Origin: an uncultured Planctomycetota bacterium
Lineage (GTDB): Bacteria; Planctomycetota; JACOTG01; JAUIME01
Direction: 5' to 3'
DNA: 64,000 nucleotides
Assembly: GCA_964597885.1 (NCBI GenBank)
Contig: CAZQZX010000008.1
Span: 576-64,575 of the forward strand
The notes under the pieces were generated by a model. It was not told the origin of the DNA. It worked only from the letters and a program-made list of their open reading frames with translations, and ran no database searches. The position numbers and the translations under genes are program-made. This document shows positions 1 through 17,465 of the stretch, one piece after another. The first letter of the stretch is position 1. The number at the start of each line of letters is the position of its first letter.

Positions 1-1539
1 CCACGCGCGGCCCATCTCGCTGCCTCCGCGGATATGCGCGATCGCGAACACGAAGCCCCGGTCGAGGAGGCTCAGGCGCGACGACCCGAATTCCGGATCG
101 ATGCAGATGCCGTAGGAACCGTATCCGTAGAGGAGCGTCGGCGCGCTGCCGTCGGTGGCGACGTCCCGTCGGTGCACGAGCGAGATCGGAACGAGCGTCC
201 CGTCGTGCGATACCGCGTCGATGCGGCGCGATTCGTACCGGGCGGGGTCGTACCCGCCGAGCACGGGCTGCTGCTTGCGGAGCTCGCGCTCCCGCGTGTT
301 CATGTCGTAGTCGTAGACCGAGCTCGGCGTCACCAGCGACGTGTATCGGAAGCGCAGAGTGGACGTATCGAACTCGGGATTCATCGAGACGTGGATCGTC
401 CCGATCGGTTCGGGGATGTCGATCTCGTGCGTCTCGTTGGTCTTCGTGTCGATCACGCGCAGGCCGGTGAAGCCGTTCGTTCGGTGCGAGAGCACGATGT
501 GGTCACGGAAGGCGTCGACGTGCGTGAGGTAGACGTCCTCACGATGCGGGACGAGCTCGCGCCATTCCTTCAGTCCGCCGCCGCGGCTCGGCGCGTCGAG
601 CGGAGCTTCGAGCAGGCGGAAGTTCTTCGCGCTGTCGTTCGTGAGCACCAGGAAGCGGTCGCCGTGATGATCGACCACGGTCTCGACGTCCGGCTGACGT
701 GCGACGAGACAGCGGAAGGAACCGTCCGGATCGTCGGCGTCGAGCACGCGGATCTCGGACGACGCGGTCGCGACCAGTTCGAGAAGCAGGAAGCGCTCGC
801 TGCGCGTCTTCGTGAGCCCGAGGAAGAAGCTCTCGTCTTTCTCGTGGAACACGAGCTCGTCTTTGGCGCCCGGTTCGGATCCGACGCTATGCCGGTACAG
901 CTTGTCGGGGCGCATCGCCTCGTCGAGGGTCCCGTAGAAGATCGTGCGATTGTCATTGGCCCACTCGATTGTGGGAGCGGTCTCTCGAATCTCGTCCGGG
1001 AGGTGCTCGCCGTTCGTGAGATCCTTCACACGCAGCGTGAACTTCTCGCCGCCCTCGGTGTCGATCGAGTACGCGAGTAGGCGGTGGTCCGGGCTCACGG
1101 CGAATCCACCGACCTCGAAGAACGAGTGCCCTTCGGCGGCCTCATTCTCGTCTAGGAGGATCTCTTCCGGCGAGTCGTCTTCGTCCGCCCGGCGACGGCA
1201 ATGGATCGCGTAGCTCTTGCCCTCCTCGGTGCGGGAGTAATAGAGCCAGGGTCCCTTGCGAGCGGGAACCGACAGATCCGTCTCTTGGATCCGCGCCTTG
1301 ATCTCTTCGTAGAGGCGCTCACGCAGAGGCTCGGTTCGATTCGTCTGAGCCTTGGTGTACGCGTTCTCGGCTTCGAGGTAGGCGAGGGTCTCGGGATCCT
1401 CGCGCTCGCGCAGCCAGAACCAGGGGTCGTCGAGCGTCACGCCGTGGACCACGGACGCGTGCTCACGCTTCGGTGCGATCGGGGGGGGCGGATCCGGTGC
1501 GGCCGCAGCCGGATCGCCGGCATGTTCGGGGCTAGTCAT
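1..1539 (-). CDS. ptrB: Oligopeptidase B (S9A prolyl oligopeptidase family), 3'-truncated by window edge
   Basis: Manual translation (absent from ORF track because it has no stop in the window): MTSPEH...HGVTLDDPWFWLREREDPETLAYLEAENAYT, and at the edge AHIRGGSEMGRAW, both typical of PtrB. ATG at 1539. Confidence 0.92.
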   Translation of the reverse strand, partial: MTSPEHAGDPAAAAPDPPPPIAPKREHASVVHGVTLDDPWFWLREREDPETLAYLEAENAYTKAQTNRTEPLRERLYEEIKARIQETDLSVPARKGPWLYYSRTEEGKSYAIHCRRRADEDDSPEEILLDENEAAEGHSFFEVGGFAVSPDHRLLAYSIDTEGGEKFTLRVKDLTNGEHLPDEIRETAPTIEWANDNRTIFYGTLDEAMRPDKLYRHSVGSEPGAKDELVFHEKDESFFLGLTKTRSERFLLLELVATASSEIRVLDADDPDGSFRCLVARQPDVETVVDHHGDRFLVLTNDSAKNFRLLEAPLDAPSRGGGLKEWRELVPHREDVYLTHVDAFRDHIVLSHRTNGFTGLRVIDTKTNETHEIDIPEPIGTIHVSMNPEFDTSTLRFRYTSLVTPSSVYDYDMNTRERELRKQQPVLGGYDPARYESRRIDAVSHDGTLVPISLVHRRDVATDGSAPTLLYGYGSYGICIDPEFGSSRLSLLDRGFVFAIAHIRGGSEMGRAW

Positions 1540-1584
1540 CGCGGCAGCATAGGATTCCTGGCGAGGCCCGGCCAGACCCGGGGG

Positions 1585-1613
1585 TTGTGCGCATCAAGGG
1601 CCTTGGTTATGAT
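1585..1613 (+). promoter_or_regulatory. Putative sigma70 promoter TTGTGC-N17-TATGAT
   Basis: Hexamers at 1585-1590 and 1608-1613 with 17-nt spacer, upstream of ATG 1656. Confidence 0.5.
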
Positions 1614-1655
1614 GTAAGTCTGTTGGGGGTTAGGACTTCTAGGAGAATAAAGAGA

Positions 1656-2309
1656 ATGGGAACTCATCGGATGGCAGCGGCACTCTGGGCTTTCGGGCTC
1701 GGTGCGGTCCTGATTTACGGGGCGGTCACGCTGGCCGCGGAGACCACGACGATCGCTCCCGGCGAGATCGTCGACTTCGAGGCGAAGAATCCTCGGCGCG
1801 TGGCCGTGCGGCTGGCGAATCTCGGGGATAGCAGCCTCGGGATCGTGACGCGCGACTCGCTGCGCCAGGTCAGCATCAACGCGGTGCTCGAACCGGGCGA
1901 GGTTCGCGACTTCCTGACGCCGTCGGCCGAGATCGCCACGGCGACCGTCAATGCCCGCCTCGAGGGGAACGTCGGCGGCGTGCTCGAGGTGCTTCCGCTC
2001 GAGACCGATGTCGAGATCCGCGTTCCGCGAGTCGGCGACGGCTTTCCGTGCGACGAGACCGTCCGGCCGATCTACCAGTCGGACGACGGCGCCAGCGCGC
2101 CCGAGGTCAGCTACCTCATCCGCAACGAGCGCGGAGCCGATTGCCAGATCCAGGTGACGATCCTGCGACCGGGCAGCGTGATCCCCGAGCTCACCACCAT
2201 CACGGGCGGCGACTCGCAGGAGTTTACCGGCGTGTTCCGCGAGATCAGCGTGAGCGGCCGCGGGAACGACAACGATCGCGTGGTCTACTTCTACACGAAG
2301 CTGAAGTAG
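1656..2309 (+). CDS. Hypothetical exported/membrane-anchored beta-rich protein
   Basis: In-frame ATG 1656 (alternative 1671) within ORF 1587..2309; N-terminal hydrophobic segment AAALWAFGLGAVLIYGAVTLAA; no family recognised. Confidence 0.7.
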   Translation: MGTHRMAAALWAFGLGAVLIYGAVTLAAETTTIAPGEIVDFEAKNPRRVAVRLANLGDSSLGIVTRDSLRQVSINAVLEPGEVRDFLTPSAEIATATVNARLEGNVGGVLEVLPLETDVEIRVPRVGDGFPCDETVRPIYQSDDGASAPEVSYLIRNERGADCQIQVTILRPGSVIPELTTITGGDSQEFTGVFREISVSGRGNDNDRVVYFYTKLK

Positions 2310-2357
2310 GCCGACGCCGCGGACCTGGATCCACCGAGACGCGAACGGCGGCGGGGC

Positions 2358-4307
2358 TCAGTCCTCGTCGCCGCCGCGCACGAAGAAGAACTCGCCGTCT
2401 CCTTCGGCCGTGTATCTCGGGCTCTGTTCGTACCCGAGGAGCTCGGCGGCGGAGGCCACCTGCAGCCTGAGGCGTGTCGCGAGATTCGAGACCATCGCGT
2501 GGCTGCCGATGCTGCGGAGCTCTTCGAGGAAGTGCTCCGTGAACAGCGAGTTCTTGCCGTGGCCGTCGAGGACGCGCTCGTCCGAGCTCCCGGCGGTGAG
2601 GAAGCACGTCACGGACTTCTTGGCGTACTGCTGCGGCAGGCTGGCCGTGGCCCCGCCCGAACGCGTCTGTCCGAGGAGCCCCGAGAAGCACGTATCGACG
2701 ACGACGAGCTTGTGACGCGCGTCGTTCATCGGGAGCCAGTCCTGCTGAAGGGCCCGCATGGCGAGGTTGCGCCGTGTCGAAGCTCCGGCCTCGAGCGTCC
2801 CGTCGTAGGGGATCAAGTAGCCGTGCGCGCGCTCTCGGGCGTCGGCGTGATCTTCGCCGTGACCGGCCCAGAACAACAGGAAGCTGTCGTCGGCGTCGGC
2901 GGCGCGCTGGATCGTTTCGAGCGTCCGTTCGATTCCGTCGAGTGTGGCCTGCTCGTTGATGAGGACGTGGGTCTCGGAAGGATCGTATCCGAGCTCGTCC
3001 ACGAGCACGGAGGCGATCGCTTGCGCGTCGTTCACGGCATTGTCGAGAGGCGCGATCGAGCGATCCGCGTAGCGATCGATCCCGACGATGAGCGCGTGGC
3101 GGCTCCCGTAGAGCGTCCGGGGCGAGAACACGTCTTCCAGTACGACGCCGCCATCGTCCTTGTCGCCTGCAGGCGGAAGCATGCCGCGCGTCTCGGACTC
3201 GTGGGGGATGCCGTCCGGACCTCCGCCGAGCGATTGGAAGAGCCAGACCCCGAGCAGAAGCGCGGCCGCGACGCCGGCCGGTCCGAGGAAGCGCCCGGGA
3301 TTCGGGAGGCCTCCGGTGGGATCGGCAGGGCGCAACGCGAGGGTGCGCCGCAGCACGGCGAGGATCCCGGCCGCGTCGAGGATCGTGCCGCCGTGGGGGG
3401 ATGCGACGAGCGTCCCGCGATGCCGCGCGCCGTCGTACCAGTGCGACGGGAGGTTCTGCGGCGAGTCGATGCCGCGGGCGCGGGCCTCGGCCTCGTCGAA
3501 GCGCGCGGCCAGGTCGGACAGGCGAAGACGCAGGGCCGGATCCGTCGACAGCACCCAGTCCGACGCGCGTAGCCGAACCGCGAGCATCCCGAATCCCTTG
3601 CCTTGCGGCGACTCGGGATCGGAGCGTGCCCAGTCGGCGAATCGATTGCTCGCGGGCTCCTCGAGCCAGAGCAGATCGCAATCGCGAACGGACGTTCCGC
3701 TCGGGACTCGCGCGGCGAATCGCCGACCCCGGTCCCGGTCTTCGAGGTAGACGTCGCGGTCGCGGCGGAGCATCGCGATCTCTTCCCGGAACGCCGACGT
3801 GCCCTCGAAGATCCCGGCGCCGAAGAGGTCGACCCCCTCGGCGATGCGTCCGGCGAGGTACTCGAACAACGCGAAGGACCGATCTCGGAACGACGCAGCC
3901 TGTGCGGCGTCGGCGAGATCCGGGGACTGGCGCTTGATCTCCTCGAAGATCGCCCGGGGGCTCTCGTCGACCGGCGCGGTTCCGGGGTCGAGCCCTTGGC
4001 GGCAGGCCCCCGCGTACTCGGCGAGCGCGGTCGCGGCTTCAGGCCGGGGCGACGATTCGGACGGCGCGCGGGTCAGGAGCCAGAGCGCGAGCAGGTCGTC
4101 GAAGACCGGAATCGACGGCGCGAAGATCGTGAGGATCGAAGAGTCGGTCCCGCCCGAAGCGAGGGCGGCCGATCCGTTCTCGAGCACGGCCTGTGAGAGT
4201 CGATCCGCGTCGGAAGCATCCGCCGCTTCGAGTACGGCTTCACCGGAGGCGGGCGGAGAAGGCCAGTCCTCTCGCGGACGAAAGCGGATCTCGAGCTCGG
4301 TCGTCAT
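2358..4307 (-). CDS. Membrane-anchored caspase-family (peptidase C14, metacaspase-like) protein with uncharacterised N-terminal domain
   Basis: C-terminal HALIVGIDRY...LDNAVNDAQAIA, FLLFWAGHG (catalytic His), VVVDTCFSG (catalytic Cys); one TM helix GPAGVAAALLLGVWLFQSL before it; SD GAAGGGAG before ATG 4307. Confidence 0.88.
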   Translation of the reverse strand: MTTELEIRFRPREDWPSPPASGEAVLEAADASDADRLSQAVLENGSAALASGGTDSSILTIFAPSIPVFDDLLALWLLTRAPSESSPRPEAATALAEYAGACRQGLDPGTAPVDESPRAIFEEIKRQSPDLADAAQAASFRDRSFALFEYLAGRIAEGVDLFGAGIFEGTSAFREEIAMLRRDRDVYLEDRDRGRRFAARVPSGTSVRDCDLLWLEEPASNRFADWARSDPESPQGKGFGMLAVRLRASDWVLSTDPALRLRLSDLAARFDEAEARARGIDSPQNLPSHWYDGARHRGTLVASPHGGTILDAAGILAVLRRTLALRPADPTGGLPNPGRFLGPAGVAAALLLGVWLFQSLGGGPDGIPHESETRGMLPPAGDKDDGGVVLEDVFSPRTLYGSRHALIVGIDRYADRSIAPLDNAVNDAQAIASVLVDELGYDPSETHVLINEQATLDGIERTLETIQRAADADDSFLLFWAGHGEDHADARERAHGYLIPYDGTLEAGASTRRNLAMRALQQDWLPMNDARHKLVVVDTCFSGLLGQTRSGGATASLPQQYAKKSVTCFLTAGSSDERVLDGHGKNSLFTEHFLEELRSIGSHAMVSNLATRLRLQVASAAELLGYEQSPRYTAEGDGEFFFVRGGDED

Positions 4308-4458
4308 CGATTCTCCCTTCGCAGAGGCAGGGCCCCGCGGGGACATTGTGCACGATGCCCCCTTCCCCCGAAAGAGGGCAGGGGCGCGATCCCTTTACGG
4401 GCTACACCCCCTCTTCCGTGCTCGCGCGATCACTTGAGAGGGTTTCTCGAGTCTTTTT

Positions 4459-4486
4459 TTGACCCTGGCCAGGGTCGGGATATACT
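4459..4486 (+). promoter_or_regulatory. Putative sigma70 promoter TTGACC-N16-TATACT overlapped by a perfect 16-bp palindrome (candidate operator)
   Basis: TTGACC 4459-4464, TATACT 4481-4486; GACCCTGGCCAGGGTC (4461-4476) equals its own reverse complement. Confidence 0.6.
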
Positions 4487-4545
4487 TCCGCGGCCCAAAG
4501 GGGATCTTGCGTCCACCGTATCGCAAGACATGAAGGAAGGTACGC

Positions 4546-5334
4546 ATGAAGGGGGACACCCGTCTGCCCATCGACAGGCCGTCTGCGCCTGTTCCCGCCT
4601 CCTCTCCCGCAGTTCATGAATCGAATTCCAGGCGCTCCCCGTCTCGGCGTGGTCGAGACGAAGCGGGCTACCTGCTCCTCGGGATGATCCTGCTGATGGC
4701 CTCGACGTCGTTGGCGCTCGGGGCCGCGTTCACGATCTACGGCGAAACGCTCGAGGAAGAGTTCGAAGAGGAGATGGACGTGGAGTTCGACGCGCTCGAA
4801 GAAGCGCTCGACAGCTACTACCGTGACACGGGAGCCGTTCCCGCGGCTCTCGCCGATCTTCTCACGAAGCCGGTCGGCGTCACGGGCTGGATGGGTCCCT
4901 ACCTCCAGGAAACGTTCCCGGACCTCGCGGCTGCGAACCTCGATCCTCTGCACGACGCCTGGGGGAATGCGTACATCGTCGCGGGATTCGCGGACGGAGA
5001 GTTCACGATTCGCTCGGCCGGTCCCGACGGCGCCGACGACAACGGCTCCGACGACGACATCGACCGCGTCGTGACGCTGAACCCGGCCTCGTGGTACGAG
5101 ACGAGCTGGGAGCTACGCATCCTCGAAGCGGCGATCGTCGCGTACAACTACTACCCCACCGATCCCGAGTACCTGAGCGGGAACTGGGAGACCGCGGCGG
5201 CGACGCTTCAGACCGCAGGGTATCTCCCGAGCGGCACGACGATGCTCAAGCGATTCCTGACCGATGGTTGGGGACAGTACTACGAACCGGACGGCAGTCC
5301 GATCACCTCTCTCGAATCCGCAGGACCTCCCTAG
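4546..5334 (+). CDS. GspG-like pseudopilin 1 (atypical N-terminus lacking Glu5)
   Basis: Basic leader then G|YLLLGMILLMASTSLALGAAF; GWMGPYL and DAWGNAY...SAGPDG...DDDI motifs of GspG-type globular domains; start uncertain. Confidence 0.8.
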   Translation: MKGDTRLPIDRPSAPVPASSPAVHESNSRRSPSRRGRDEAGYLLLGMILLMASTSLALGAAFTIYGETLEEEFEEEMDVEFDALEEALDSYYRDTGAVPAALADLLTKPVGVTGWMGPYLQETFPDLAAANLDPLHDAWGNAYIVAGFADGEFTIRSAGPDGADDNGSDDDIDRVVTLNPASWYETSWELRILEAAIVAYNYYPTDPEYLSGNWETAAATLQTAGYLPSGTTMLKRFLTDGWGQYYEPDGSPITSLESAGPP

Positions 5335-5350
5335 AAACACGGAACGAAGA

Positions 5351-6097
5351 ATGAGTACCGAACCCGATTGGATCCACCCGCAGACGGAAGACGTAGCCGT
5401 CGAAGCTCCGAAGGGAGACTGCGCCGGCTTCACGCTTCTCGAGATGGTGACGGTCGTCGCCATGTTCTCGCTTCTCGTGGGCATGGGAGTTCCCGTCACC
5501 GAGCTGTTCGTCCGACAGAAGATGCTCGAGGAGACGCGAGAGGAGATGGAAGCGATCCGCGACGCCGTGCTCGACTACTATCGCGACGTCGAAGCGTTTC
5601 CGGGCGGCCTCGTCGATCTCGTCTCGCCGTCGGTGACGCCTTCGGGATGGCTCGGGCCGTACCTTGCGCCGGAGTTCACCGATTCGGCGACCGACCTCGA
5701 CGACTACCGGTACGACAAGTGGCGAACCGCGTACGAGTTCACGACGGTGAGCGCGACGGTGCGACGCCTGCGGAGCTGGGGAGGCAACCTCACCAACAAC
5801 AACGGCGCCTCCGACGACATCACCCTCGACATCAACGTCGGGGTCGTCCTCGGAGAGCTGACTCGCGCCGAGGTGAAAACCATCAACAATGCGATCGCCA
5901 CCTACAACTCGGACTTCGTCCTGAGCACGCCGCTCTCGACGACGTTCTCGACCATGCTCGGAGAGCTCCAAGCCGCGGGCTACTTGCCCTCGGACGCCGC
6001 ATCCACCACGAAGTACTCGACGGACGGATGGGGACAGGCTTACGTGACCAACGGGAGCAATCCCGTGATCGAGGTGTACTCTCCCGGCGCGCCCTGA
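5351..6097 (+). CDS. GspG-like pseudopilin 2
   Basis: Prepilin cleavage motif AG|FTLLEMVTVVAMFSLLVGMGVP; GWLGPYL, DKWRTAY...SWGGN...DDI; ATG 5351 in frame with ORF 5264..6097. Confidence 0.87.
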   Translation: MSTEPDWIHPQTEDVAVEAPKGDCAGFTLLEMVTVVAMFSLLVGMGVPVTELFVRQKMLEETREEMEAIRDAVLDYYRDVEAFPGGLVDLVSPSVTPSGWLGPYLAPEFTDSATDLDDYRYDKWRTAYEFTTVSATVRRLRSWGGNLTNNNGASDDITLDINVGVVLGELTRAEVKTINNAIATYNSDFVLSTPLSTTFSTMLGELQAAGYLPSDAASTTKYSTDGWGQAYVTNGSNPVIEVYSPGAP

Positions 6098-6164
6098 GCG
6101 GCTCGCCGAGACACAAGGGGACCATGCCGTGTCACCGACCGGCGAAGGAAGGGACAGGAAGAAG

Positions 6165-7688
<1,524 letters not shown>

Positions 7689-7762
7689 AAGAACATCTGA
7701 TTCGGCCCTGACGCTTGCTTCACGTCAGGAGCCGCGGGGATAAAACGAAGGGGAAGCATGTT

Positions 7763-7806
7763 GAACAGGGACGCGGCCCGATCGGGCTTCGTTCCTGTTC
7801 TTTTTT
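7763..7806 (+). terminator. Probable intrinsic terminator after the pseudopilin operon
   Basis: GAACAGGGACG...GCCCGATCGGGC...CGTTCCTGTTC stem-loop followed by a T-run (7801-7806). Confidence 0.7.
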
Positions 7807-7837
7807 GGGGGGGCTCGCGCCAGGGTAGCGCAGCGGC

Positions 7838-8008
7838 CTAGGCCTTCTTGAGGGCCTCGAGCTCTTCCTGGGCCTTCGCGAGCTCGGCTTCGAGCCGGGC
7901 GACTTCGCCAGCTTCGTCGGACTGCTGTCGGGCGCCGGCGATCTGCTTCTGCAGCTTCTGCACCTTGGCGCGAAGCACCTCGAGCTTCTTCTTGATCTTC
8001 TTGTTCAT
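7838..8008 (-). CDS. Small (56 aa) Lys/Glu-rich coiled-coil protein
   Basis: MNKKIKKKLEVLRAKVQKLQKQIAG...EELEALKKA; ATG overlaps the upstream gene's TGA (ATGA). Confidence 0.7.
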   Translation of the reverse strand: MNKKIKKKLEVLRAKVQKLQKQIAGARQQSDEAGEVARLEAELAKAQEELEALKKA

Positions 8009-8712
8009 CGCTTCTCTTGCTGGAGGGTCGGCGCGATGAAGCGCCTCAGGTAGAAGAGGCCGAACGCCGTGAACGCCACGAGGGCGACGGTGGACGCGAT
8101 GATGAGCCACAGGTTCTGATCGACGAGTCCCTGGCCGAGAAGGACGAAGAACAGCGTCGACGGGATCATGCCGAGCGCCGTCGCTCCGAGGTAATCCGCG
8201 AACCGGACGGAAGACACGCCGCACAGGTAGTTCGTGACGACGAAGTTGCTGAAGGGGATCAGCCGCAGGAGGGCCACGGCCGTGAACCCGTGCTTCATCG
8301 CCAGGTCGTCGAAGCTTCGAGCGCGCGGCCCGAGCCGGTTGGCGACGAAGTCACGTCCCATCACTCGCGCGAAGAGGAAGGCCGCCGCCGCCCCGAGAGA
8401 CGAGCCGACTACCGACAGGATCATCGCGAGCGGGATCCCGAAGAGCGCGGCGCCGAGTATGGTCGGATACATGCGCGGGATACCGCACAGCGCCGTCGAG
8501 ACCAGCACGAGCAGGAACAGGAACGGCGCGAACACGCCGGTATCCGCGATCCAGGCCCGCCAGATCACGGCGTTCTCCTGGTCGAAGAACTCGTGGATCG
8601 GGGTCAGAAAGAACGCGAGGACGAACGTCACCAGAAGCGCGAGCATCACGAGGAAGCGGCGCGTCGGGGCGTCGAAACGCTCCTTGGTCGAACAGGCTCG
8701 TTGAACCGCCAA
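8005..8712 (-). CDS. TVP38/TMEM64 (VTT/DedA superfamily) membrane protein
   Basis: LGAAAAFLFARVMGR...GFTAVALLRLIPFSNFVVTNYLCGVSSVRFADYLGATALGMIP; start uncertain (TTG 8712 after GGAGG, or ATG 8646). Confidence 0.88.
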   Translation of the reverse strand: MAVQRACSTKERFDAPTRRFLVMLALLVTFVLAFFLTPIHEFFDQENAVIWRAWIADTGVFAPFLFLLVLVSTALCGIPRMYPTILGAALFGIPLAMILSVVGSSLGAAAAFLFARVMGRDFVANRLGPRARSFDDLAMKHGFTAVALLRLIPFSNFVVTNYLCGVSSVRFADYLGATALGMIPSTLFFVLLGQGLVDQNLWLIIASTVALVAFTAFGLFYLRRFIAPTLQQEKR

Positions 8713-8852
8713 CAAGAACCTCCGATTGCAATGTGATTCGCGCGACCCCGGCTCGCCAATGAAATCGCCGCCCGATGGAATCGCGCCCCTCCCCACCCTC
8801 ACGTCCCATCCTGACTTCCGGTGAGGGACGACTCGCAAAGCTGCTGTCGATG

Positions 8853-9938
8853 CTATCCGAACAGCTGTGTCCAGTGCGTTCGGCTCCGGCCCAGTCCGAT
8901 GCGCCCGTGATTCCCGAGCATGTTCTTGTGGTGGCCGGGGCTGTGGAACCATCCCAGATTCGTGTTGCTCGGATCGCGATGCCCGTACGCGATGTTTTCC
9001 GAGGACGCGCTCGCACGGAATCGGCTCGCCCGGTCGGAGAAGGTTCGCTTCCCCGGGAGCGGCGACGTGTGCGAGAAGAACTCATGGTTGGCCATGTCGT
9101 TCGAGTGATCGCGCGCGGCCGCGCACAGCTTGACGTCGATCCGCAGCGCGTTCAGGCCGAGCATGAGGCGAAGGATGTTCAGGTCGAGCACGCCGAGCGC
9201 TTCGGCCGCGTCGATCTGCCACGCGAGCTTCGCGTTCTCGATCAGGACCTTCTTGGCGCCTCCGGGGATCGACATCGCGAGCGTCGTCGCCAGGCGTTCG
9301 TTGCGGGCGAGTACTTCTTCGAAGAGCGACGGCTCGTTCGACTGGCCGTCCTCGATGCGTCGCGCCGGGGCGAGGATCTCTTCGCAGCGGTCCCAGTGGG
9401 TGCCGAGGGCGATGAGCGCGTCGCGATCCGCGGTGAGCTCTTCTTCATCGGTGAGGAGCTCGTGGACGTCGACGAGGAGCAGCTCGCTCAGCCGTTCGAC
9501 CGCGGGGTCTCCCTCATCGAGGATGCGCTGCTTGCTGAGCGCGCCGTCCTGGCTCAGCACGAGCACGGCTTCACGGAGCTTCTTCAGCTCGGAGCCGAGA
9601 GCGCGCCGCTTCTTCAGGGCGGGCTTCGCGAGCTTGGTGAGGCGCGCACGATAGCCCGCGAGCGCCTTGTCGAGCTCCTTCTGGATCTCGGACTTCAGCC
9701 GTTCGACCGCTTCGGGGCCGAGCGCCACCGCCTCCTCGACGAGGTCGGTGCGGCGATCGGGCTCGGTACGCGCAGCGCGAAAGTCGGCGACGATCCGCTT
9801 GGCGTTCGCGGCCGTCTTCGCGTAGGCCGGCGCAGCCGGAGTTCCACCCGCGCGCGGAGCGATCGCGAGCGCCATCATGGCGGCCGCGAGCAGCGTCGCG
9901 AGGAGCAGTCCGGATCCACGTGAACCGACGGAAATCAT
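8853..9938 (-). CDS. Secreted CAP (SCP-like) domain protein
   Basis: Signal peptide; C-terminal CAAARDHSNDMANHEFFSHTS...SENIAYG...WFHSPGHHKNML...WTQLFG. Confidence 0.88.
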   Translation of the reverse strand: MISVGSRGSGLLLATLLAAAMMALAIAPRAGGTPAAPAYAKTAANAKRIVADFRAARTEPDRRTDLVEEAVALGPEAVERLKSEIQKELDKALAGYRARLTKLAKPALKKRRALGSELKKLREAVLVLSQDGALSKQRILDEGDPAVERLSELLLVDVHELLTDEEELTADRDALIALGTHWDRCEEILAPARRIEDGQSNEPSLFEEVLARNERLATTLAMSIPGGAKKVLIENAKLAWQIDAAEALGVLDLNILRLMLGLNALRIDVKLCAAARDHSNDMANHEFFSHTSPLPGKRTFSDRASRFRASASSENIAYGHRDPSNTNLGWFHSPGHHKNMLGNHGRIGLGRSRTHWTQLFG

Positions 9939-10112
9939 GCGGAAGAGAGTACCTAAGGGAGCCGGGCTTTCCAAGGTCGGCTTGACGGGGTACCGGGCGG
10001 GGCCTACATTCGAGCGGCCGGGTTCGAGTGACGTCTCGGATGCGGCCGGCGCGCTCGCGGAACGCGGCGTGCCGGGAGGTAGGGGAGACAAGCCGAATCC
10101 GAGGAGGTCCCG

Positions 10113-11867
10113 TTGCCGCGAGCCCGCGCATCGAGCCGTCGACTCCCCCTGCGATGCCGCATCGTGCTGGCGTCGATCGTCGTCTGTCTTGCGGCACCGG
10201 TCGTGGCCGCGCCGCAAGCGACCGACGAAGCGGCGAGCCGGGACCGTTCCCGGGCGGCGCTCCACGAGCTCCGGGACACCGATCTCGTGAGCGGCGGCCT
10301 CATCCTGCCGTTCGCCCGGGACTTCGCGACGCCCGCCGACATCGGGCTACCCCAGGAAACGGCGACCTTCCCCAACGACATCGGCGAGAGCTTGCGGGGC
10401 TGGTTCGTCGACCGCCCCGGAACCGACCGCACGATCCTGATCTGCATGGGGAACACCGGGAACATCTCCCACACGCTCGAGTACGTGCGCTTTCTCTACG
10501 AGGGCGGGTTCGACGTGTTCGTGTTCGACCCGCAGGGATTCGGCGGGAGCTCGGGGCGGGCCAGCGTGTTCTCGCTGCCCGGCGATGCGGCGGCCGCTTA
10601 CCGATTCCTCCGGGAGTCGAAGAAGCGGGATCCGTCCGACATCGCGATCCTCGGGATCTCGCTCGGCTCGATGACCGCGCTGATGGTCGCGGAGCGTGAG
10701 AAGCCGGCCGGCGTGGTGATCGAGTGCCTTTTCGCGCCATCCCGCCAGCTCGATCAGCTGCGAGCGTACGCGAGCGGCGGGCGGATGACGGATCTCGGGT
10801 TCTCCCTGCTCGAAAGGGTGGGGCTTCCGATCGTGGATCCCTACCCGCGTCTGCCGCGCATCGAGTGCCCGATCCTGTTCGTCCACGGCGTCGACGACGG
10901 GCTGTTGCCCCCGGGCGCCTCGATCGAAGCCGTGCGACATGCGACGTCCCCTCGACTCTGGCTGATGGAAGGCGCCGGCCATTCGCCGGAGCTCCTCGTC
11001 GGCAACGATCGCGAGCATGCTCATCAGATCGTCCGGCTGTTCCGCCAGGCTTTCGGCGATGAGCCCTTCACGAACCCGGAGGTTTCGCTCGCGCCTTCCG
11101 CCGAGGATCCGCGGGTCGTGCGGATCGAGATCGCGTCGCCCTTGCCGCGCCGAGCCCTCGAGATCGCGCTGGTCGATTCCGCCGACCGGATCGAGATCGT
11201 TCGCCTGATGAGCGACGCGCCGGAGGAGCGGCGCACGCTGCGGCCGAAGCTCGAGGCCGTCGACGCTCACGCGGTCGAGATCGGGTTCTTCGTCGATCGC
11301 GGCGACGGCACCTGGGAGCCGGATCTCTCGGAGCTGTCGGTCTCGTATGCGGCACTCCGCCGGTTCGAGCAAGAGCAGCAGAAGAACGCGTTTCCGACGT
11401 CGTTCCGTTTCCTGCGGCAGGGCGATGTGCGATTCGGGACCCGCGGGTTCGACGCGAAGAGCACCACGTGGCTCCGCGAGAATCTGCCCGACCCGGGCGC
11501 CGTCCACCCGCGGATCCGTCCGCTCTATGTGCCCTTGATCGCGCAGATGTCGCTCGGCGTCGCGGACGAGCGAACGCGCGAGGAGCTGGCCCGCATCGCG
11601 CTCCGTTACTTCCCGGAAGACCCGGGCCGCCACTTCGAGCTCGGGAACGCTTCGTTTGCACTCGGCTTCGACGGTCTGCTCCCGGCGCGTGCCTGCCTGA
11701 GCGCCGCGAAGTCGTTCCTGCGCGAGGGGGAATTCGCCCGAGCGCGCGAGCTCGCGGCGCAGTACCTCGAACTGCTGCCCGAGCGATACGGGGCCGGTCT
11801 CACGCCGGAGGCGATCGCCGCCGCGGACTCGGTCGAGGATCTCGAGCACGAAGAGATCGAGTACTGA
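10113..11867 (+). CDS. Secreted alpha/beta-hydrolase with C-terminal extension
   Basis: Signal peptide; GISLG nucleophile elbow, LFVHGVDDGLLP (Asp), EGAGH (His); start uncertain. Confidence 0.8.
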   Translation: MPRARASSRRLPLRCRIVLASIVVCLAAPVVAAPQATDEAASRDRSRAALHELRDTDLVSGGLILPFARDFATPADIGLPQETATFPNDIGESLRGWFVDRPGTDRTILICMGNTGNISHTLEYVRFLYEGGFDVFVFDPQGFGGSSGRASVFSLPGDAAAAYRFLRESKKRDPSDIAILGISLGSMTALMVAEREKPAGVVIECLFAPSRQLDQLRAYASGGRMTDLGFSLLERVGLPIVDPYPRLPRIECPILFVHGVDDGLLPPGASIEAVRHATSPRLWLMEGAGHSPELLVGNDREHAHQIVRLFRQAFGDEPFTNPEVSLAPSAEDPRVVRIEIASPLPRRALEIALVDSADRIEIVRLMSDAPEERRTLRPKLEAVDAHAVEIGFFVDRGDGTWEPDLSELSVSYAALRRFEQEQQKNAFPTSFRFLRQGDVRFGTRGFDAKSTTWLRENLPDPGAVHPRIRPLYVPLIAQMSLGVADERTREELARIALRYFPEDPGRHFELGNASFALGFDGLLPARACLSAAKSFLREGEFARARELAAQYLELLPERYGAGLTPEAIAAADSVEDLEHEEIEY

Positions 11868-11876
11868 GCTTCGGAC

Positions 11877-11935
11877 GCGGTCCGTTCGCGACGTCGAGCG
11901 GTCCGTTCGCGACTTTCGAAGGGGGATCCGTTCGG
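11877..11935 (+). promoter_or_regulatory. LytTR-type direct repeat site
   Basis: GCGGTCCGTTCGCGAC at 11877 and 11898 (21-bp period); core TCCGTTCGC copies separated by 12 nt; third copy TCCGTTCGG at 11927; a LytS/LytTR pair lies downstream. Confidence 0.6.
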
Positions 11936-11979
11936 GTCACGCGTAGCTAACGCGGACCCGAAACTCGAAAGGAGCCCCC

Positions 11980-13023
11980 ATGAGAACTCTCGCGCTCGTC
12001 ACTCGCTGGATCCTGCCGGCGTCGATCCTGTTGCTCGTCGGCCTCGACTCGGCTCGAGGCGATGAGGTCCCGTTCCTGCGATGGCACGAGAACGTCGACG
12101 CGGATCGACTCGCACTTGGTGGATACGATCCGGTCGCGTACCTGCAGGACGGTCGCGCGGTGCGCGGCGAGGACGATCTCGAGGCCTCGCACGAAGGCGT
12201 CCGGTACCGTTTCGCGATCGACGAGCATCGCGATCTGTTCCAGAAGGATCCCGACCGCTACCTGCCGGAGTTCGGGGGGTGGTGCGCCTACTCGCTCGGC
12301 GTCGATCCGAAGACCGGGGCCGTGCCGCTTCGAGTGAAGGCGGACCCGCGGAGCTTCCAGGTGATCGACGGCCGCACGGTTCTGTTCGCGCGATTCCCGA
12401 GCTTCGACGCGCGAAAGACCTGGAACCAGGGCGACCCGGCGGCGCACCTCGAGCGAGCGCGCGCTTTCTGGAAGAGCCGGGAGTCGCTCGCGGCCTCGGT
12501 CGGCGCCAAGCCGGAGGGTCTTCACCCGATGGCCGTGCTCGAGACGGTGCAGTTCGACTTCTTCGTCGGCGAATGGGACAGCCGCTACAAGGTGCGCGTC
12601 GACCCGAAGCAGCCGGGCTATTCGCAGGAGATCCGCGGAACCTGGAAGGCCTGGTACGGCTGGGAGGGCTTCGCGATCTACGATGACTGGTCGCAGGTCG
12701 GAGGACGTCCCGGCAACAGCGGACCGGCCATTCGCTCGTTCGACCCCGTCTCGCGCAAGTGGATCATGCACTACATCCCGATCAACGCACCGCTCAGCTC
12801 GGTGTGGGCGATGACGGGGGAGTTCGACGAGAAGGGGTGGCTCCACGCGGAGATGGAGGCCTCGGACGGCCGAGGGAAGTTCCTGCAGCGCGTCCATTTC
12901 GTGAACATCAGCGAGGATCACTTCTCGTGGCGATCCGACCGGTCCTATGATGGGGGCGAGACCTGGATCGAAAACTGGGGGATGGGAGAGAACCATCGAG
13001 TCCGAAAGACGAGAGGCACCTGA
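11980..13023 (+). CDS. Secreted YHS-domain protein fused to a DUF1579-like C-terminal domain
   Basis: ALGGYDPVAY...GVRYRFA...RDLFQKDPDRYLPEFGGWCAY (YHS); QFDFFVGEWD...FSWRSDRSYDGGETW (DUF1579-like); SD AAGGAG. Confidence 0.8.
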   Translation: MRTLALVTRWILPASILLLVGLDSARGDEVPFLRWHENVDADRLALGGYDPVAYLQDGRAVRGEDDLEASHEGVRYRFAIDEHRDLFQKDPDRYLPEFGGWCAYSLGVDPKTGAVPLRVKADPRSFQVIDGRTVLFARFPSFDARKTWNQGDPAAHLERARAFWKSRESLAASVGAKPEGLHPMAVLETVQFDFFVGEWDSRYKVRVDPKQPGYSQEIRGTWKAWYGWEGFAIYDDWSQVGGRPGNSGPAIRSFDPVSRKWIMHYIPINAPLSSVWAMTGEFDEKGWLHAEMEASDGRGKFLQRVHFVNISEDHFSWRSDRSYDGGETWIENWGMGENHRVRKTRGT

Positions 13024-13060
13024 GCGAACGGACGGAAGGGCCGTCGCCGTCGCACCTCGA

Positions 13061-14134
13061 GTGGAGTCCGAGGTGCCGTGGTCGACGCACGTCGTCGCGT
13101 GGCTTCTCCTGGCAATCCTGCTCGCCGCGATCTTTGCGCTGAGCGATGCGCTCTCGGGGCGGATCGTCTCGATGCCGTATCTCGGGGCGCTGGCGCTTCT
13201 CTGTTCGGCGCTCTGGTTGCTCTCGGCGCCTCTCATCTGGCGCTTCACCGCGCTGGGTCAGTTCTCGACGCCGGGGTCTCTGGAGCTGCCCCTCGCGCAC
13301 TTCGCGGTCTCGATCGTGTTCGCCGTGGCCTGGACGGGCGTGTTCTCCGTGCCGATGTGGTGGGTCGGCCCGCTGTTTCTCGAGGCCTCGCCGACCCTTG
13401 CGCAGTCTTTTCGCGGCGCCTCGAACTACTTCATTCTGCCGTCCGTGCTCTTCTACTGGCTGGTGGTCGGTGCGCGCTGCGCGTTCGATCTCTCGACCCG
13501 TCTCGCGAGCGAGGAGACACGGCGGGCCCGGGCTGAGGAGCAGCTGGTCCGGTGGCGCCTCGACGTGCTGCGCATGCAGATGAGCCCCCATTTCCTCTTC
13601 AACACGCTGAACACGGTGTCCGGGCTGGTCCGCACGAATCGCGGCGAGACCGCGGTGGCGATGATCGCGAAGCTCGGGAAGGTGCTTCGCGGATCGCTCG
13701 AGGAGGATGGTTCGGGATTCGCGCCGGTCGAAGGCGAGCTCGCGGCGATCGAGGACTTCGTCGAGATCGAGCGTTGCCGGTTCGGCGACCGGCTGGACTT
13801 CGCGGTCGAGGCCGACCCCTCGATCGTCGAGCACTCGATCCCGCGCTGGATGCTTCAGCCCCTGGTCGAGAACGCGATCCGACACGGGCTCGAGGGCGAC
13901 CCCGACGCGGGACGCGTTCGTCTGCGGATCGCTCCCGACGGTCCGTGGCTGCGGATCGACGTCGAGGACGACGGGGCGGGCCTCGCCGAGGACGCGACGC
14001 CGGGAGTTGGCCTTCGGAACACGCGGCAGCGGCTCGAGGATCTGTACGCCGATCTCGGGCGGATCGATCTCGATCGTCTCGAGCGAGGAACGCGGGTGAC
14101 GATCCGGATCCCGCTCGAACGGACCGAGCCATGA
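13061..14134 (+). CDS. LytS/YehU-family sensor histidine kinase
   Basis: Several N-terminal TM helices; MQMSPHFLFNTLNTVSGL, LQPLVENAIRHG, DDGAG, GVGLRNTRQRL; start uncertain (ORF open from 12947). Confidence 0.9.
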   Translation: MESEVPWSTHVVAWLLLAILLAAIFALSDALSGRIVSMPYLGALALLCSALWLLSAPLIWRFTALGQFSTPGSLELPLAHFAVSIVFAVAWTGVFSVPMWWVGPLFLEASPTLAQSFRGASNYFILPSVLFYWLVVGARCAFDLSTRLASEETRRARAEEQLVRWRLDVLRMQMSPHFLFNTLNTVSGLVRTNRGETAVAMIAKLGKVLRGSLEEDGSGFAPVEGELAAIEDFVEIERCRFGDRLDFAVEADPSIVEHSIPRWMLQPLVENAIRHGLEGDPDAGRVRLRIAPDGPWLRIDVEDDGAGLAEDATPGVGLRNTRQRLEDLYADLGRIDLDRLERGTRVTIRIPLERTEP

Positions 14135-14877
14135 TCCGCGTCTTCGTGATCGACGATGAGCCCGTCGCGAGGCAGAACGTCGAAGCGCTTCTCGGCAAGT
14201 GCTCCGACGTGGAGGTCCGGCTTTCTTCCGGCGATCCGGTCGATGCGCTCCGGAGGATTCGCGAGGAGCCGCCCGATCTCGTGTTCCTCGACGTGCGCAT
14301 GCCGCGGCTCGACGGCATGACCTTCCTCGTACGGATGCGGGAGGATCTACCGGAAGAGCGAAGACCTTATGTCGTCCTCGTCACCGCGTTCGACCGTTAC
14401 GCGCTCGAGGCGTTCGAGTACGAAGCTCTCGACTATCTCGTGAAGCCGTTCGACACTCCGCGGTTCGAGACGGCACTCCGTCGGGCTCGCGATCGGATCC
14501 GTCAGCGAAGAGCGGTCGCGGAAGCGGGCCCCGAAGTCCGAGCGGCCGCGTCCTCCGAGCGTCTTCGCTTCAAGGTGAGCGGGGGGGAGGTGCTCCTCGA
14601 TCCTTGCGAGATCTGCTGGGTGGAGGCCGTCGACCACTACGTGCTCCTTCACGCTGCGATGCGGAGCTACCTCGTGCGGCTGACGATGTCCGAGGCCGAG
14701 AGGCGGCTCTCGCCGCACGGCAGCGTGCGCGTGCACCGGGGCGCGATCGTGAACATCGCGTGCATCCGATCGCACGAGCGGTTGGCGGACGGATCGCGCG
14801 AGCTCGTGCTCTCGGAGGGCAGCCGCGTGCGGGTCAGCCGACGTCGCTGGCGCGAGATCCGCGAGCGGATCGAGTAA
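14131..14877 (+). CDS. LytTR-family response regulator
   Basis: VIDDEP, LVFLDVRMP, FDRYALEAFEYEALDYLVKP; LytTR domain VRVHRGAIVN...VSRRR; ATGA overlap with the kinase. Confidence 0.93.
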   Translation: MIRVFVIDDEPVARQNVEALLGKCSDVEVRLSSGDPVDALRRIREEPPDLVFLDVRMPRLDGMTFLVRMREDLPEERRPYVVLVTAFDRYALEAFEYEALDYLVKPFDTPRFETALRRARDRIRQRRAVAEAGPEVRAAASSERLRFKVSGGEVLLDPCEICWVEAVDHYVLLHAAMRSYLVRLTMSEAERRLSPHGSVRVHRGAIVNIACIRSHERLADGSRELVLSEGSRVRVSRRRWREIRERIE

Positions 14878-14933
14878 GCGCCCGATCTTCCGGCGCCGGC
14901 TCGGCCGCGCTCGCTCAATGGCTTCCGTCCGGG

Positions 14934-15482
14934 CTACGCGGCCTGCTTCTCGCGGCACTCGACGAGCTGCGCTTGCGCCTCGCGCATCCGCTCCTCGGCC
15001 CGTCCCAGGCTCGCCCACACCTCGTCGATGTAGCCGTCGGCCGACGCCGACCAGGCGCGGTTGATGTTGCGCTCGCCGTTGGCGAAGGCGCTCATGATGT
15101 CGGCGTATCGCTGCATGCCGAAGAGCGGAATGAGCGACTCGCGCGATTCGACGAAGTCGTTGAGATCGTCCATGAGCTGGGCGTCGATCTGCCCGTGAAC
15201 GTCGAAGACGTCGATCGAGTCCTTGGATTCGTTCATCGCGCCGATCTTCGTGACGAGGCTCGCAACCGCTTTCTCGAGCGCCTCGAGGCCGCCGCTGTGC
15301 GCTTCGGTGTCACCCTTGGCGGCGGCCGCGTGCGACCGCACGAGCACGAGCCCGACGAGCATCGCTCCCGCGCACGGCGCGAACTGTCCCCACTTCACGT
15401 GGTCGACCTCGGCCGTCGCGATGAAGGCGCCCGCGAGAAACCCGATCATCAGAAACACGTAGCCGATCTGCTTGGTGGTCAC
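14934..15482 (-). CDS. Hypothetical membrane protein (2 N-terminal TMs plus helical domain)
   Basis: GTG 15482 preceded by AGGAG; 10 nt downstream of the OPT gene; motif ERNINRAWSASADGYIDEV. Confidence 0.75.
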   Translation of the reverse strand: MTTKQIGYVFLMIGFLAGAFIATAEVDHVKWGQFAPCAGAMLVGLVLVRSHAAAAKGDTEAHSGGLEALEKAVASLVTKIGAMNESKDSIDVFDVHGQIDAQLMDDLNDFVESRESLIPLFGMQRYADIMSAFANGERNINRAWSASADGYIDEVWASLGRAEERMREAQAQLVECREKQAA

Positions 15483-15492
15483 GGGGCGACTC

Positions 15493-17298
15493 CTACAGGT
15501 TCTCGATGACTTTGATGATCGCGTGTCCGACACCGACGAGAGCCTCGCCGACGATGAAGCCCGCGGCGATCGGGATGCCGACGTTCTCGACCCACTCGCG
15601 ACCCTTGGCCTTGTCCGCCCAGATGCGCAGGAAGTTTCCGATCGTGTACGTGAGCACGATGTTGAACGGCATGTAGAAGCCGAGGCCGACGAGCACGCCG
15701 ATGCCGCCGAGACCCGAGAGCGCGAACAGCAGTCCGAGCGTCGCGCCCGAGATGTAGCGATACTCGGGAACGTCGCCGCCCACCACGCCCTGGATCATGC
15801 TGGCGAGGGCCTCACCCTGCGGCGCGGGCAGTGTGTCGGAGCCGAGCGTGTACGCTTCGTGCAGCACGAAGATGAGCCCCATGATCAGGATCGGGCCGAG
15901 CCACGTGCCGAGGTACTGACCGATCTGCTGCATGCGTGGCCGCGCGCCGACGAGATAGCCGGATTTGAGGTCGAGCATCATGTCGCCGGCCTGCGAGATG
16001 GCCACGCAGATGGCGGCCCCGATCACGACCGACGCGACGATCTGCTGCGTGTCGCCGAGACCGCTCGCCACGAGGAGCAGGATCGTCACCGCGATGAGCG
16101 TCATGCCCGACAGCGGCGACCAGTTCGTGCGGCCGAGGCATTCCGAGACGATGACGCCGGCCACCCACACCCATAGGGTTCCGAGGATGGCCATCGCGGC
16201 CGCGCGCGGGAGCGACATGCCCGGGCCCGCGTTACCCTCGGTGTCGACGACGCCTCCGATCGAGAAGAGCGAGACGACGATGAGCGCCACGAGCCCGATA
16301 CCGATGCCGATGTACAGCAGCTTGATCGGCATCTCTTCCGCGGCGATGTCTCCGCCGGCGCCACCCTCGGCGCGCTGCTTGGCGGCCTGCTGCATCGACC
16401 GGATGGCCGAGAGGATCAGCGGCGCGGCGAAGAAGATGCTGCCGACCGCGGCGCCGATCAGCATGCCGATGCCGGTCGGTCGGAAGAGCGTTCCGCGGAG
16501 CGCGCCCGCTGCGCCCTCACCGGCGGCCATCTCCTGGACGGCGGTCGAGCCGGCGAACGAGAGGATCGGGGCGAGGAACCAGTAGCACAGGAACCCGCCC
16601 GCGCCGAACCACAGTCCGCCCTTGCCGGAGAGGAAGCCGACGCCGATCGTCATGATCGACAGGTAGAAGACGATGTTCAGGAAGTCGGGCAAGCCGAGCT
16701 GGGCGCCGAGTGGCCAGTCGTGATGGTCGCCCATCGCGACCAGCACGAGCAGATGCGCACCTCCCGAGAAGGCGGCGGCGGCGAGCAGGATCATTGTCTT
16801 GCGAAGGCCGGCGCCCGGCGACTTCAGGATCGTCGCCACCGCGATACCGCCGGGGTACGCGAGGCGGTTGAAGTCGATCATCTGTTTCCGGAGCGGGATG
16901 ATGAAGCTGAGCCCGAGCACCGCCCCCGCGATGCACGCGAAGATCATGAGCGGGGGACTGAACTCGACCGCGCCCGGATAGCCCTTCGAGCTCAGGATGA
17001 AGAGCGCCGGCACCGAGAACATCATTCCCGAGGAGGCGCCGTTCACCGCCGAGGCGATGGTCTGGTTGATGTTGTTCTCGACGATACTCGTGCGGCGGAG
17101 CACACCGCGCAGGATTCCCCAACCGAGGATCGCGGCGAGCTCGGAGCCTTCGATCGAGAATCCGAGGATGAGCGCGGCGTAGCCGATCGAGATGGCGATG
17201 ATCGCGCCGAGCAGATAGCCCACGAGAAGCGCGGACCAGGTGAGCTCGGGGTACGGGCCGTAGTGGATGCGGCGGCCCTTCGACGAGGTGCTGGCCAA
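15493..17298 (-). CDS. OPT/YSL-family oligopeptide transporter
   Basis: PELTWSALLVG...SIVENNINQTIASA...LAYPGGIAVATILKS, NWSPLSGMTLI, AGDMMLDLKSGYLVGARP, LPAPQG; highly hydrophobic. Confidence 0.92.
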   Translation of the reverse strand: MASTSSKGRRIHYGPYPELTWSALLVGYLLGAIIAISIGYAALILGFSIEGSELAAILGWGILRGVLRRTSIVENNINQTIASAVNGASSGMMFSVPALFILSSKGYPGAVEFSPPLMIFACIAGAVLGLSFIIPLRKQMIDFNRLAYPGGIAVATILKSPGAGLRKTMILLAAAAFSGGAHLLVLVAMGDHHDWPLGAQLGLPDFLNIVFYLSIMTIGVGFLSGKGGLWFGAGGFLCYWFLAPILSFAGSTAVQEMAAGEGAAGALRGTLFRPTGIGMLIGAAVGSIFFAAPLILSAIRSMQQAAKQRAEGGAGGDIAAEEMPIKLLYIGIGIGLVALIVVSLFSIGGVVDTEGNAGPGMSLPRAAAMAILGTLWVWVAGVIVSECLGRTNWSPLSGMTLIAVTILLLVASGLGDTQQIVASVVIGAAICVAISQAGDMMLDLKSGYLVGARPRMQQIGQYLGTWLGPILIMGLIFVLHEAYTLGSDTLPAPQGEALASMIQGVVGGDVPEYRYISGATLGLLFALSGLGGIGVLVGLGFYMPFNIVLTYTIGNFLRIWADKAKGREWVENVGIPIAAGFIVGEALVGVGHAIIKVIENL

Positions 17299-17465
17299 GG
17301 ACGTCCCTTTCTTCCTCGAGGTCTTGCGACTCGCGCCCTCCCGCCCGCGGGCGAGGGGCGTCTAGCGCCGGAAGGGGAGCCCCCACCGGCCCGGACGGGC
17401 GTCAGGGTATCCGAGCCGCGACCGGAAATCCAGGGGGCATGCCGGGAGAGCGGCCAGTGGCGGGC

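Follow-up and report, generated by a model that had tools for sequence, protein, structure and literature searches.

A conserved DHH/DHHA1-like domain joined through a predicted membrane helix to a caspase-family protease in a Planctomycetota bacterium

The stretch of DNA analysed here (hereafter the window; 64,000 nucleotides, positions 576 to 64,575 of contig CAZQZX010000008.1, assembly GCA_964597885.1) comes from an uncultured Planctomycetota bacterium, represented by a 7.0-Mb metagenome-assembled genome with five C14 peptidase genes. One gene within the window, at 2358..4307 on the minus strand, encodes a caspase-family protein with a large N-terminal domain (N-domain). This N-domain was found to be a conserved unit that recurs in front of, or behind, a variety of output domains, and its predicted structure resembles most closely the DHH/DHHA1 phosphoesterases. 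We propose, with about an even chance of being right, that it is a cytoplasmic pseudo-DHH input module controlling an extracytoplasmic caspase. The features of the gene are as follows.

2358..4307, minus strand: whole gene, 649 amino acids plus a TGA stop codon (2358-2360)
4313..4319, minus strand: Shine-Dalgarno-like AAGGGAG, 5 nt upstream of the ATG at 4307 (read from the sequence)
3735..4307, minus strand: N-lobe and helical linker, residues 1-191 (AlphaFold2 model, conservation)
3318..3734, minus strand: C-lobe, residues 192-330 (AlphaFold2 model; DHHA1-like fold by Foldseek)
3228..3290, minus strand: single transmembrane helix FLGPAGVAAALLLGVWLFQSL, residues 340-360 (Kyte-Doolittle mean 1.74)
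3102..3227, minus strand: acidic Gly/Pro-rich linker from the helix to the protease, residues 361-402
2406..3101, minus strand: Peptidase_C14 (caspase/metacaspase-like) domain, residues 403-634 (Pfam PF00656)
2859..2861, minus strand: codon of catalytic His483 (WAGHG); GHG is kept in the family consensus
2688..2690, minus strand: codon of catalytic Cys540 (VVDTCFSG); DxCxSG is kept in the family consensus

Domain organization and predicted membrane topology

The ~320-residue N-terminal domain described in an earlier, sequence-only reading of this DNA is a real conserved unit of about 330 residues. Using residues 1-345 as the query in an exhaustive phmmer search, 379 cluster representatives (50% identity level) were detected at E<=1e-3, of which 264 remained at E<=1e-10 and 76 at E<=1e-30, and the matches to the N-domain spanned about 320 residues every time. 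An AlphaFold2 model based on an alignment of 131 sequences was obtained with high confidence (mean predicted local distance difference test score, pLDDT, 93.4; predicted template modelling score, pTM, 0.89), and the C-lobe modelled by itself reached a pLDDT of 96.3. The N-domain sequences are overall merely 30-50% identical but share about 40 near-invariant positions. D70, P218 and R228 are invariant, and G45, R103, G105, D183, D190, W226, W251, S254, P257, E274, W290, D292, G293, P304 and G307 are at least 90% conserved; the window copy carries every one of these residues. The near-invariant polar set consists of D70, R103, D183, D190, R228, D230, D256, E274, W290 and D292. In the N-lobe, conserved positions include G45, Y98, R103, G105, D183 and D190, while those of the C-lobe include P218, W226, R228, D230, W251, S254, D256, P257, E274, W290, D292 and G293. 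No match to the N-domain was found in Pfam, NCBIfam or PADLOC, each searched with the whole protein, nor any consistent family in Pfam at E<=10 for 28 N-domain members, nor any sequence match in PDB by phmmer or by profile. The relatives, such as homologue P0004 (MEM7164396.1, Planctomycetota), are labelled at NCBI merely as 'caspase family protein'.

The C-terminal half is a caspase-like protease, as was read from the sequence before. Peptidase_C14 was the sole Pfam match of the whole protein (E 7.8e-23, 81.8 bits against a cut-off of 21.4, profile positions 2-225 of 233). Both His483 and Cys540 are present, and the His-Cys dyad is intact in the sequence. The family profile detected the structures of metacaspase-4, Yca1, MCA2 and GSU0716 (metacaspases/paracaspases) in PDB, via the C-terminal half only. 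The sole NCBIfam match, to the EACC1-associated caspase model NF047832, scored 74.2 bits, under the cut-off of 140, and PADLOC returned only its generic caspase model.

Between the two domains lies one predicted transmembrane helix. Residues 340-360 are the sole strong hydrophobic segment of the window protein, which has no N-terminal signal sequence, and the homologues carry a hydrophobic segment at the same place, stronger than that of the window copy. The helix of the window protein is preceded by the Arg-rich LRRTLALRPADPTGGLPNPGR and followed by an acidic stretch. Among 120 homologues, the mean number of Lys and Arg residues was 4.36 in the 15 residues before the helix versus 1.73 after it, the excess being on the N-terminal side in 106 homologues and on the C-terminal side in 3. 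Because of this positive-inside bias and the lack of a signal sequence, the N-domain is predicted to be cytoplasmic and the C14 protease extracytoplasmic, in agreement with the earlier view that the helix separates the two domains across the membrane. The product would thus be a single-pass (bitopic) inner-membrane protein. Transmembrane-linked, predicted extracytoplasmic bacterial metacaspases were common in an earlier survey (Asplund-Samuelsson et al. 2012, PMC3501461). Four homologues (P0013, P0014, P0017 and P0022) contain an extra beta-rich segment of about 150 residues between the helix and the caspase domain (alignment A2, columns ~470-640), consistent with an extracytoplasmic Ig-like spacer.

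As to the limits of the gene, an uninterrupted minus-strand open reading frame extends over 2358..4346 and encodes 662 amino acids counted from its first ATG. The in-frame ATG at 4346, which would add 13 residues, is the less likely start. The ATG at 4307 (Met14 of the longer frame) is preferred because AAGGGAG lies 5 nt upstream and the closest homologues start at the equivalent residue; the same start had been chosen before, and the short sequences quoted then were all found in the product (FDDLLALWLL, residues 69-78; ADWARSD, 224-230; GKGFGMLAV, 236-244; WYDGARHRGTLVASPHGGTIL, 290-310; AGHG and DTC).

Relation of the N-domain to DHH-family proteins

The sequence-only reading had likened the N-domain to degenerate DHH/MYG1-type domains. 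The likeness finds support at the level of the predicted fold, where DHH-family phosphoesterases ranked first in all three Foldseek searches (TM-scores 0.25-0.43), and fails at the level of sequence families. With the full N-domain against PDB, the DHH/DHHA1 catalytic domain of GdpP occupied the first three places (E 0.015-0.02, prob 0.72-0.84, about 280 aligned columns) and everything below was noise. With the C-lobe alone, yeast PPX1 came first (E 3.7e-3, prob 0.85), and mycobacterial NrnA (prob 0.82, TMq 0.41), GdpP, the C-Ala domain of AlaRS (DHHA1) and Borrelia DhhP were also detected, with TMq of 0.33-0.43 for these C-lobe matches. Against BFVD, the full N-domain matched viral DHH-family phosphohydrolases (E 2e-4 to 1.4e-2, prob 0.96-0.99), including a Harvfovirus DHH-family phosphohydrolase (E 2e-4, prob 0.99), a Bacillus phage 'exopolyphosphatase' (2e-3, prob 0.99), an Erwinia phage phosphohydrolase and a Pithovirus DHH phosphohydrolase. 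The Foldseek comparison that the earlier reading had called for thus placed DHH-family proteins at the top in both PDB and BFVD, with modest scores.

In the model, a strand (60-64), the D70/D71 loop and a helix (69-79) of the N-lobe resemble DHH motif I, and the rest of this lobe is mostly helical (helices 89-103, 117-126, 134-156 and 174-193). The C-lobe is composed, in order, of two beta-hairpins, a helix, a strand, the conserved loop P304-x-x-G307-T and a final helix. This P-x-x-G-T loop stands where DHHA1 has GGGH. Of the DHH catalytic motifs (DxD, D, DHH, D), just D70/D71 is left, at the motif-I-like position, and motifs II-IV are absent. His does not exceed 57% in any column of the N-domain alignment, and neither DHH motif I or III nor the DHHA1 GGGH retains its His. 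Since no conserved His is present and only the Asp pair of motif I is kept, 'degenerate DHH-like' is a fair label, and the adjective of the earlier reading was well chosen.

For the comparison of sequence families, alignments were made of 20 NrnA-like DHH/DHHA1 proteins from related genomes and of 40 bacterial MYG1 proteins. Using hhalign, the N-domain alignment gave a probability of 0.1% against the NrnA-like proteins, which is not significant and lends no support to NrnA-like membership; the best ungapped piece, which was not significant, was the DHHA1 hairpin ahead of GGGH. Against MYG1 the probability was 0.9% (P 0.064), over 26 columns around motif I only. The register of this local alignment (vvvP..PTlDDmLAa against IITHpGxAHrDDFLA) is suggestive, not significant. 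The invariant residues of the MYG1 alignment are H11, H16, D18, D55, D68-H69-H70, D107 and H252, and its invariant His residues are absent from the N-domain. PF03690 (MYG1/UPF0160) had no match in the protein or in the 28 N-domain members, and is itself nearly missing from the phylum (one of 151 genomes). The hhalign probability, the lack of a PF03690 match and the missing His together leave membership in the MYG1 family unsupported. The link to CorA-like proteins, proposed at the same time, was not seen either: in the 150 best of the 379 representatives, no protein ends in paired transmembrane helices of the CorA type. Literature searches retrieved nothing relevant on a DHH-like sensor fused to caspases or on a MYG1/CorA link. 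Taken together, an origin of the N-domain within the DHH superfamily is quite probable, though not proven.

Fusion partners and the proposed input role

Other effectors carried by the N-domain, which the earlier reading had asked to be listed, were found. The catalogue of partners covers the best 150 of the 379 representatives together with the homologous loci. A caspase-type partner is C-terminal in 126 of these 150, nearly all with one hydrophobic helix between the domains, and trypsin-like peptidases likewise stand behind a transmembrane helix (P0086, P0093 and P0061). Without such a helix, the N-domain is joined to TIR (P0118), DUF4145 (P0111) or HATPase_c (P0144). Ser/Thr kinases are located either N- or C-terminal to it (P0033, P0099 and the seven others of their cluster of nine; L092-L097), and class III adenylate/guanylate cyclases, often with TPR, were found in P0143, L095, L099 and L100. 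Stand-alone copies also exist (L091 and P0126). Proteases are thus placed across the membrane, while cytoplasmic enzymes are joined directly, and in the kinase, cyclase and HATPase_c proteins the N-domain occupies the slot usual for input domains. By this pattern, the N-domain looks like a reusable input module. The fusion partners thereby strengthen, but do not prove, the earlier suggestion of a ligand-sensing gate.

Association with cyclases extends to the neighbourhoods of some relatives. TPR-cyclase genes are located within 3 kb of N-domain-caspase genes in loci of the genomes G352/G233, G228 and G365, which contain 12-32 cyclases in 3.7-5.8 Mb, giving a chance expectation of about 0.03-0.04 per locus. 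A cyclase gene in the same operon was identified in some homologous loci (L081/L082, L086 and L090) and is absent for the window copy, the two PF00211 genes of its own genome being on contigs C347 and C291, not on C8. As a 'Rosetta-stone' style link, the TPR-cyclase-N-domain fusions and these loci, with the kinase-N-domain protein encoded in L001, connect the family to cyclase/kinase signalling, though through few independent lineages. An SfsA gene upstream in L081/L082 is probably coincidental and was set aside.

Based on these findings, we favour the following scheme. The cytoplasmic two-lobed domain of about 330 residues would be derived from the DHH/DHHA1 phosphoesterase fold, and would have lost its metal-binding His/Asp motifs while keeping a separate near-invariant polar set; with those motifs lost, it is probably no phosphoesterase. 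It may instead act as an input module sensing a ligand or a partner. A nucleotide-derived molecule as the ligand is favoured by the ancestry and by the cyclase association, and is for now a doubtful, if possible, identification. Binding would induce a dimerisation or rearrangement that is relayed via the single transmembrane helix to the C14 protease; induced dimerisation is the most economical mechanism, because a single helix transmits little beyond the state of association. The periplasmic protease might then be switched on by induced proximity or by autoprocessing, and would cut envelope or periplasmic proteins. Whereas the architecture, the conservation, the predicted topology, the likeness of fold, the missing catalytic motifs, the variety of fusion partners and the patchy distribution are observations of this analysis, we infer that the domain senses, what it senses, that the signal travels inside-out and what follows from it (suicide or defence as against envelope remodelling or signalling).

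Several points weigh against this scheme. The Foldseek TM-scores are below 0.5 and the E-values modest, so that convergence or a chance match of folds is possible, and no significant link to the DHH families was found at the sequence level (Pfam, profile search of PDB, hhalign against NrnA-like and MYG1 proteins). A binding site is not the only use for so many invariant Asp, Glu and Arg residues, which could make up a new active site instead. Signalling from cytoplasm to periplasm via one helix, as the predicted topology would require, is unusual. Finally, no cyclase, kinase or other conserved partner is located near the window copy, and the cyclase/kinase link therefore rests on its relatives.

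The possibility of a new active site leads to a reading that we hold to be unlikely, in which the N-domain catalyses a reaction of its own, for instance as a metal-dependent hydrolase or transferase, at a remodelled site built from D70/D71, D183, D190, D230, D256, E274, D292 and R103/R228, and the protein is bifunctional, with enzymatic activity on both sides of the membrane. The number of near-invariant charged residues is indeed unusually high for an overall identity of 30-35%, and the Asp pair of motif I is kept where DHH enzymes bind metal. However, the His of these DHH and DHHA1 motifs (I, III and GGGH) are all missing, and a domain joined again and again to kinases, cyclases, HATPase_c, TIR or proteases follows the typical pattern of an input domain, not of a second effector.

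In one Planctomycetota genome (G320, 10.4 Mb), five N-domain paralogues were identified, mostly Ser/Thr-kinase fusions (L092 = G320:C121, L093, L095 and L096), two of them separated by about 6-7 kb on a single contig; the family appears to have expanded within this lineage.

Genomic context and comparison with known systems

The N-domain was detected in 16 of the 401 sampled genomes of the phylum, none of them from the same family or the same order as the source genome, and up to five copies occur in one genome. Other members belong to Pirellulaceae, Gemmataceae, Myxococcales and Kofleriaceae. This distribution suggests an accessory, horizontally mobile gene. In L091 (G167:C1:220500-239500; 7592-16483), a stand-alone N-domain protein of 337 residues is encoded directly downstream of a 2098-residue WD40-rich protein, beside a phage-type integrase gene.

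Genes for Ser/Thr kinases are located within 7 kb in six of the homologous loci examined (L001, L003, L084, L086, L090 and L098). The locus of the closest homologue, L001, encodes both a kinase-N-domain protein and an N-domain-caspase protein. These arrangements, together with the kinase fusions on either side of the N-domain and the common WD40 and TPR partners, would also suit a module for protein-protein docking or scaffolding within a network of Ser/Thr kinases and cyclases, either a kinase substrate or an adaptor recruiting the protease, that binds no small molecule. Kinases are abundant in these phyla, however, and in kinase-rich Planctomycetota and Myxococcota genomes adjacency is weak evidence, which qualifies the kinase link as such; moreover, the buried-looking conserved polar residues and the DHH ancestry suit a small-ligand pocket better. 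We consider a pure docking role improbable.

Locus L003 (ENA ERZ24794654 contig, 1-17842; homologue P0003) contains bpMoxR-vWA genes, two sigma54 activators, a WD40 protein, a kinase-FGE-sulfatase protein and two further caspase-domain genes, forming a dense cluster of the conflict or signalling type. In five related loci (L084-L087 and L090), to which it is confined, a conserved secreted protein or lipoprotein of about 250-274 residues (cluster c4), without Pfam match, is encoded by the gene directly preceding that of the N-domain-caspase protein; the periplasmic protease could have it as substrate, inhibitor or partner.

Signalling might also run from outside to inside, or not take place. 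The protein would then be a constitutive or Ca2+-activated envelope protease, and its cytoplasmic domain an anchor, an assembly element or an output freed by cleavage. For many bacterial metacaspases an extracytoplasmic location is predicted and no regulator is known (PMC3501461), the window gene is monocistronic and without partner genes, and secreted proteins or lipoproteins, possible substrates, often flank the homologues. Yet an anchor needs no domain of 330 residues with some 40 near-invariant positions, and the same domain is found in wholly cytoplasmic proteins with classic output domains; this reading is accordingly very unlikely.

The neighbours of the window gene are as follows.

1587-2309, plus strand: 240-residue protein without Pfam match, hydrophobic segment at its N-terminus; gene convergent with that of the caspase
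4546-7688, plus strand: three tandem pseudopilin genes similar to type II secretion system G protein (T2SS-G), with N-methylation motifs (262, 277 and 519 residues), divergent from the caspase gene
8005-10265, minus strand: VTT/DedA-type membrane protein (315 residues) and a 470-residue protein with a C-terminal CAP/SCP domain, just past the pseudopilin genes

The 240-residue secreted protein, on the same side of the caspase gene as an S9 oligopeptidase, has no homologue in the other loci compared. The third pseudopilin contains a (GN)n low-complexity run and a C-terminal extension of about 250 residues without Pfam match. Neither the pseudopilins nor the S9 peptidase nor the 240-residue protein has a counterpart in 22 other loci (tblastn against L001-L005; all-versus-all clustering). 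A single surface system composed of the caspase gene and the three divergent T2SS-G-like genes with their N-methylation motifs was therefore rejected as extremely improbable, since none of these neighbours recurs beside the homologues in the loci compared.

Returning to the input-module reading, the arrangement can be compared with known systems. Bacterial metacaspases and orthocaspases (MEROPS C14, PF00656; PMC3501461) share with it the C14 fold, the His-Cys dyad and a transmembrane helix that places the protease outside. In contrast to the described metacaspases, the helix here is internal rather than a signal anchor at the N-terminus, and the large conserved cytoplasmic domain ahead of it has no counterpart in the described architectures. 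The DHH/DHHA1 phosphoesterases (GdpP, NrnA, PPX1 and DhhP; PF01368, PF02272, PF02833) and MYG1 (PF03690) appear, from the model, to have in common with the N-domain two lobes and the strand-loop-DD-helix at motif I, whereas the N-domain shows no significant sequence or profile similarity to these proteins, lacks their motifs II-IV and GGGH, and has an N-lobe that is largely helical past motif I.

Fusions of sensor and effector are well established in nucleotide-signalling defence, including PycTM and PycTIR of Pycsar, the Cap effectors with SAVED of CBASS, and the CARF effectors of type III CRISPR. As in those systems, a single sensing domain goes with effectors that can be exchanged (protease, TIR and others), class III cyclases are fused or adjacent in some loci, and the distribution is patchy. 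Unlike them, the N-domain does not have a cNMP-binding, SAVED or CARF fold, many of its partners are ordinary signalling enzymes (Ser/Thr kinases, cyclases and HATPase_c), no cyclase is near the window copy, and the protease is across the membrane from the putative sensor.

EACC1-associated caspases and systems of effector-associated or adaptor domains (EADs) were described by Kaur et al. (PMC8195603). A caspase with a constant non-catalytic module, the occurrence in bacteria of complex lifestyle (Planctomycetota, Myxococcota) and bpMoxR-vWA in one homologous locus are features in common, but the score of NF047832 is below cut-off and the N-domain differs from the helical adaptors of the Death-like or EAD type. 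That study makes no mention of a DHH-like module.

What is already known, therefore, includes sensor-effector fusions and membrane-anchored bacterial metacaspases. New are the N-domain family, which lacks an entry in Pfam and NCBIfam and did not come up in the literature searched, its probable pseudo-DHH nature, the breadth of its partners and the predicted inside-out arrangement with proteases. In its boldest form, which we do not think probable, the proposal would define a new class of cytoplasmic second-messenger receptor evolved from DHH/DHHA1 phosphodiesterases through loss of catalysis, reading a nucleotide made by the associated TPR class III cyclases and acting as the inside-out switch of a periplasmic protease in caspase and trypsin forms, in a Pycsar/CBASS-like manner but executed outside the cytoplasm, in Planctomycetota and Myxococcota.

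The regulators of bacterial caspase homologues are mostly unknown, and here a module of about 330 residues, unannotated in curated libraries, gains a confident model, a plausible pseudo-phosphodiesterase ancestry and seven different output domains. The hypothesis is directly testable, given a domain of soluble size, named conserved residues and candidate cyclase partners in homologous loci. If the N-domain binds a nucleotide, it would represent a new receptor fold for second-messenger signalling and a rare case of protease activation from the cytoplasm to the periplasm.

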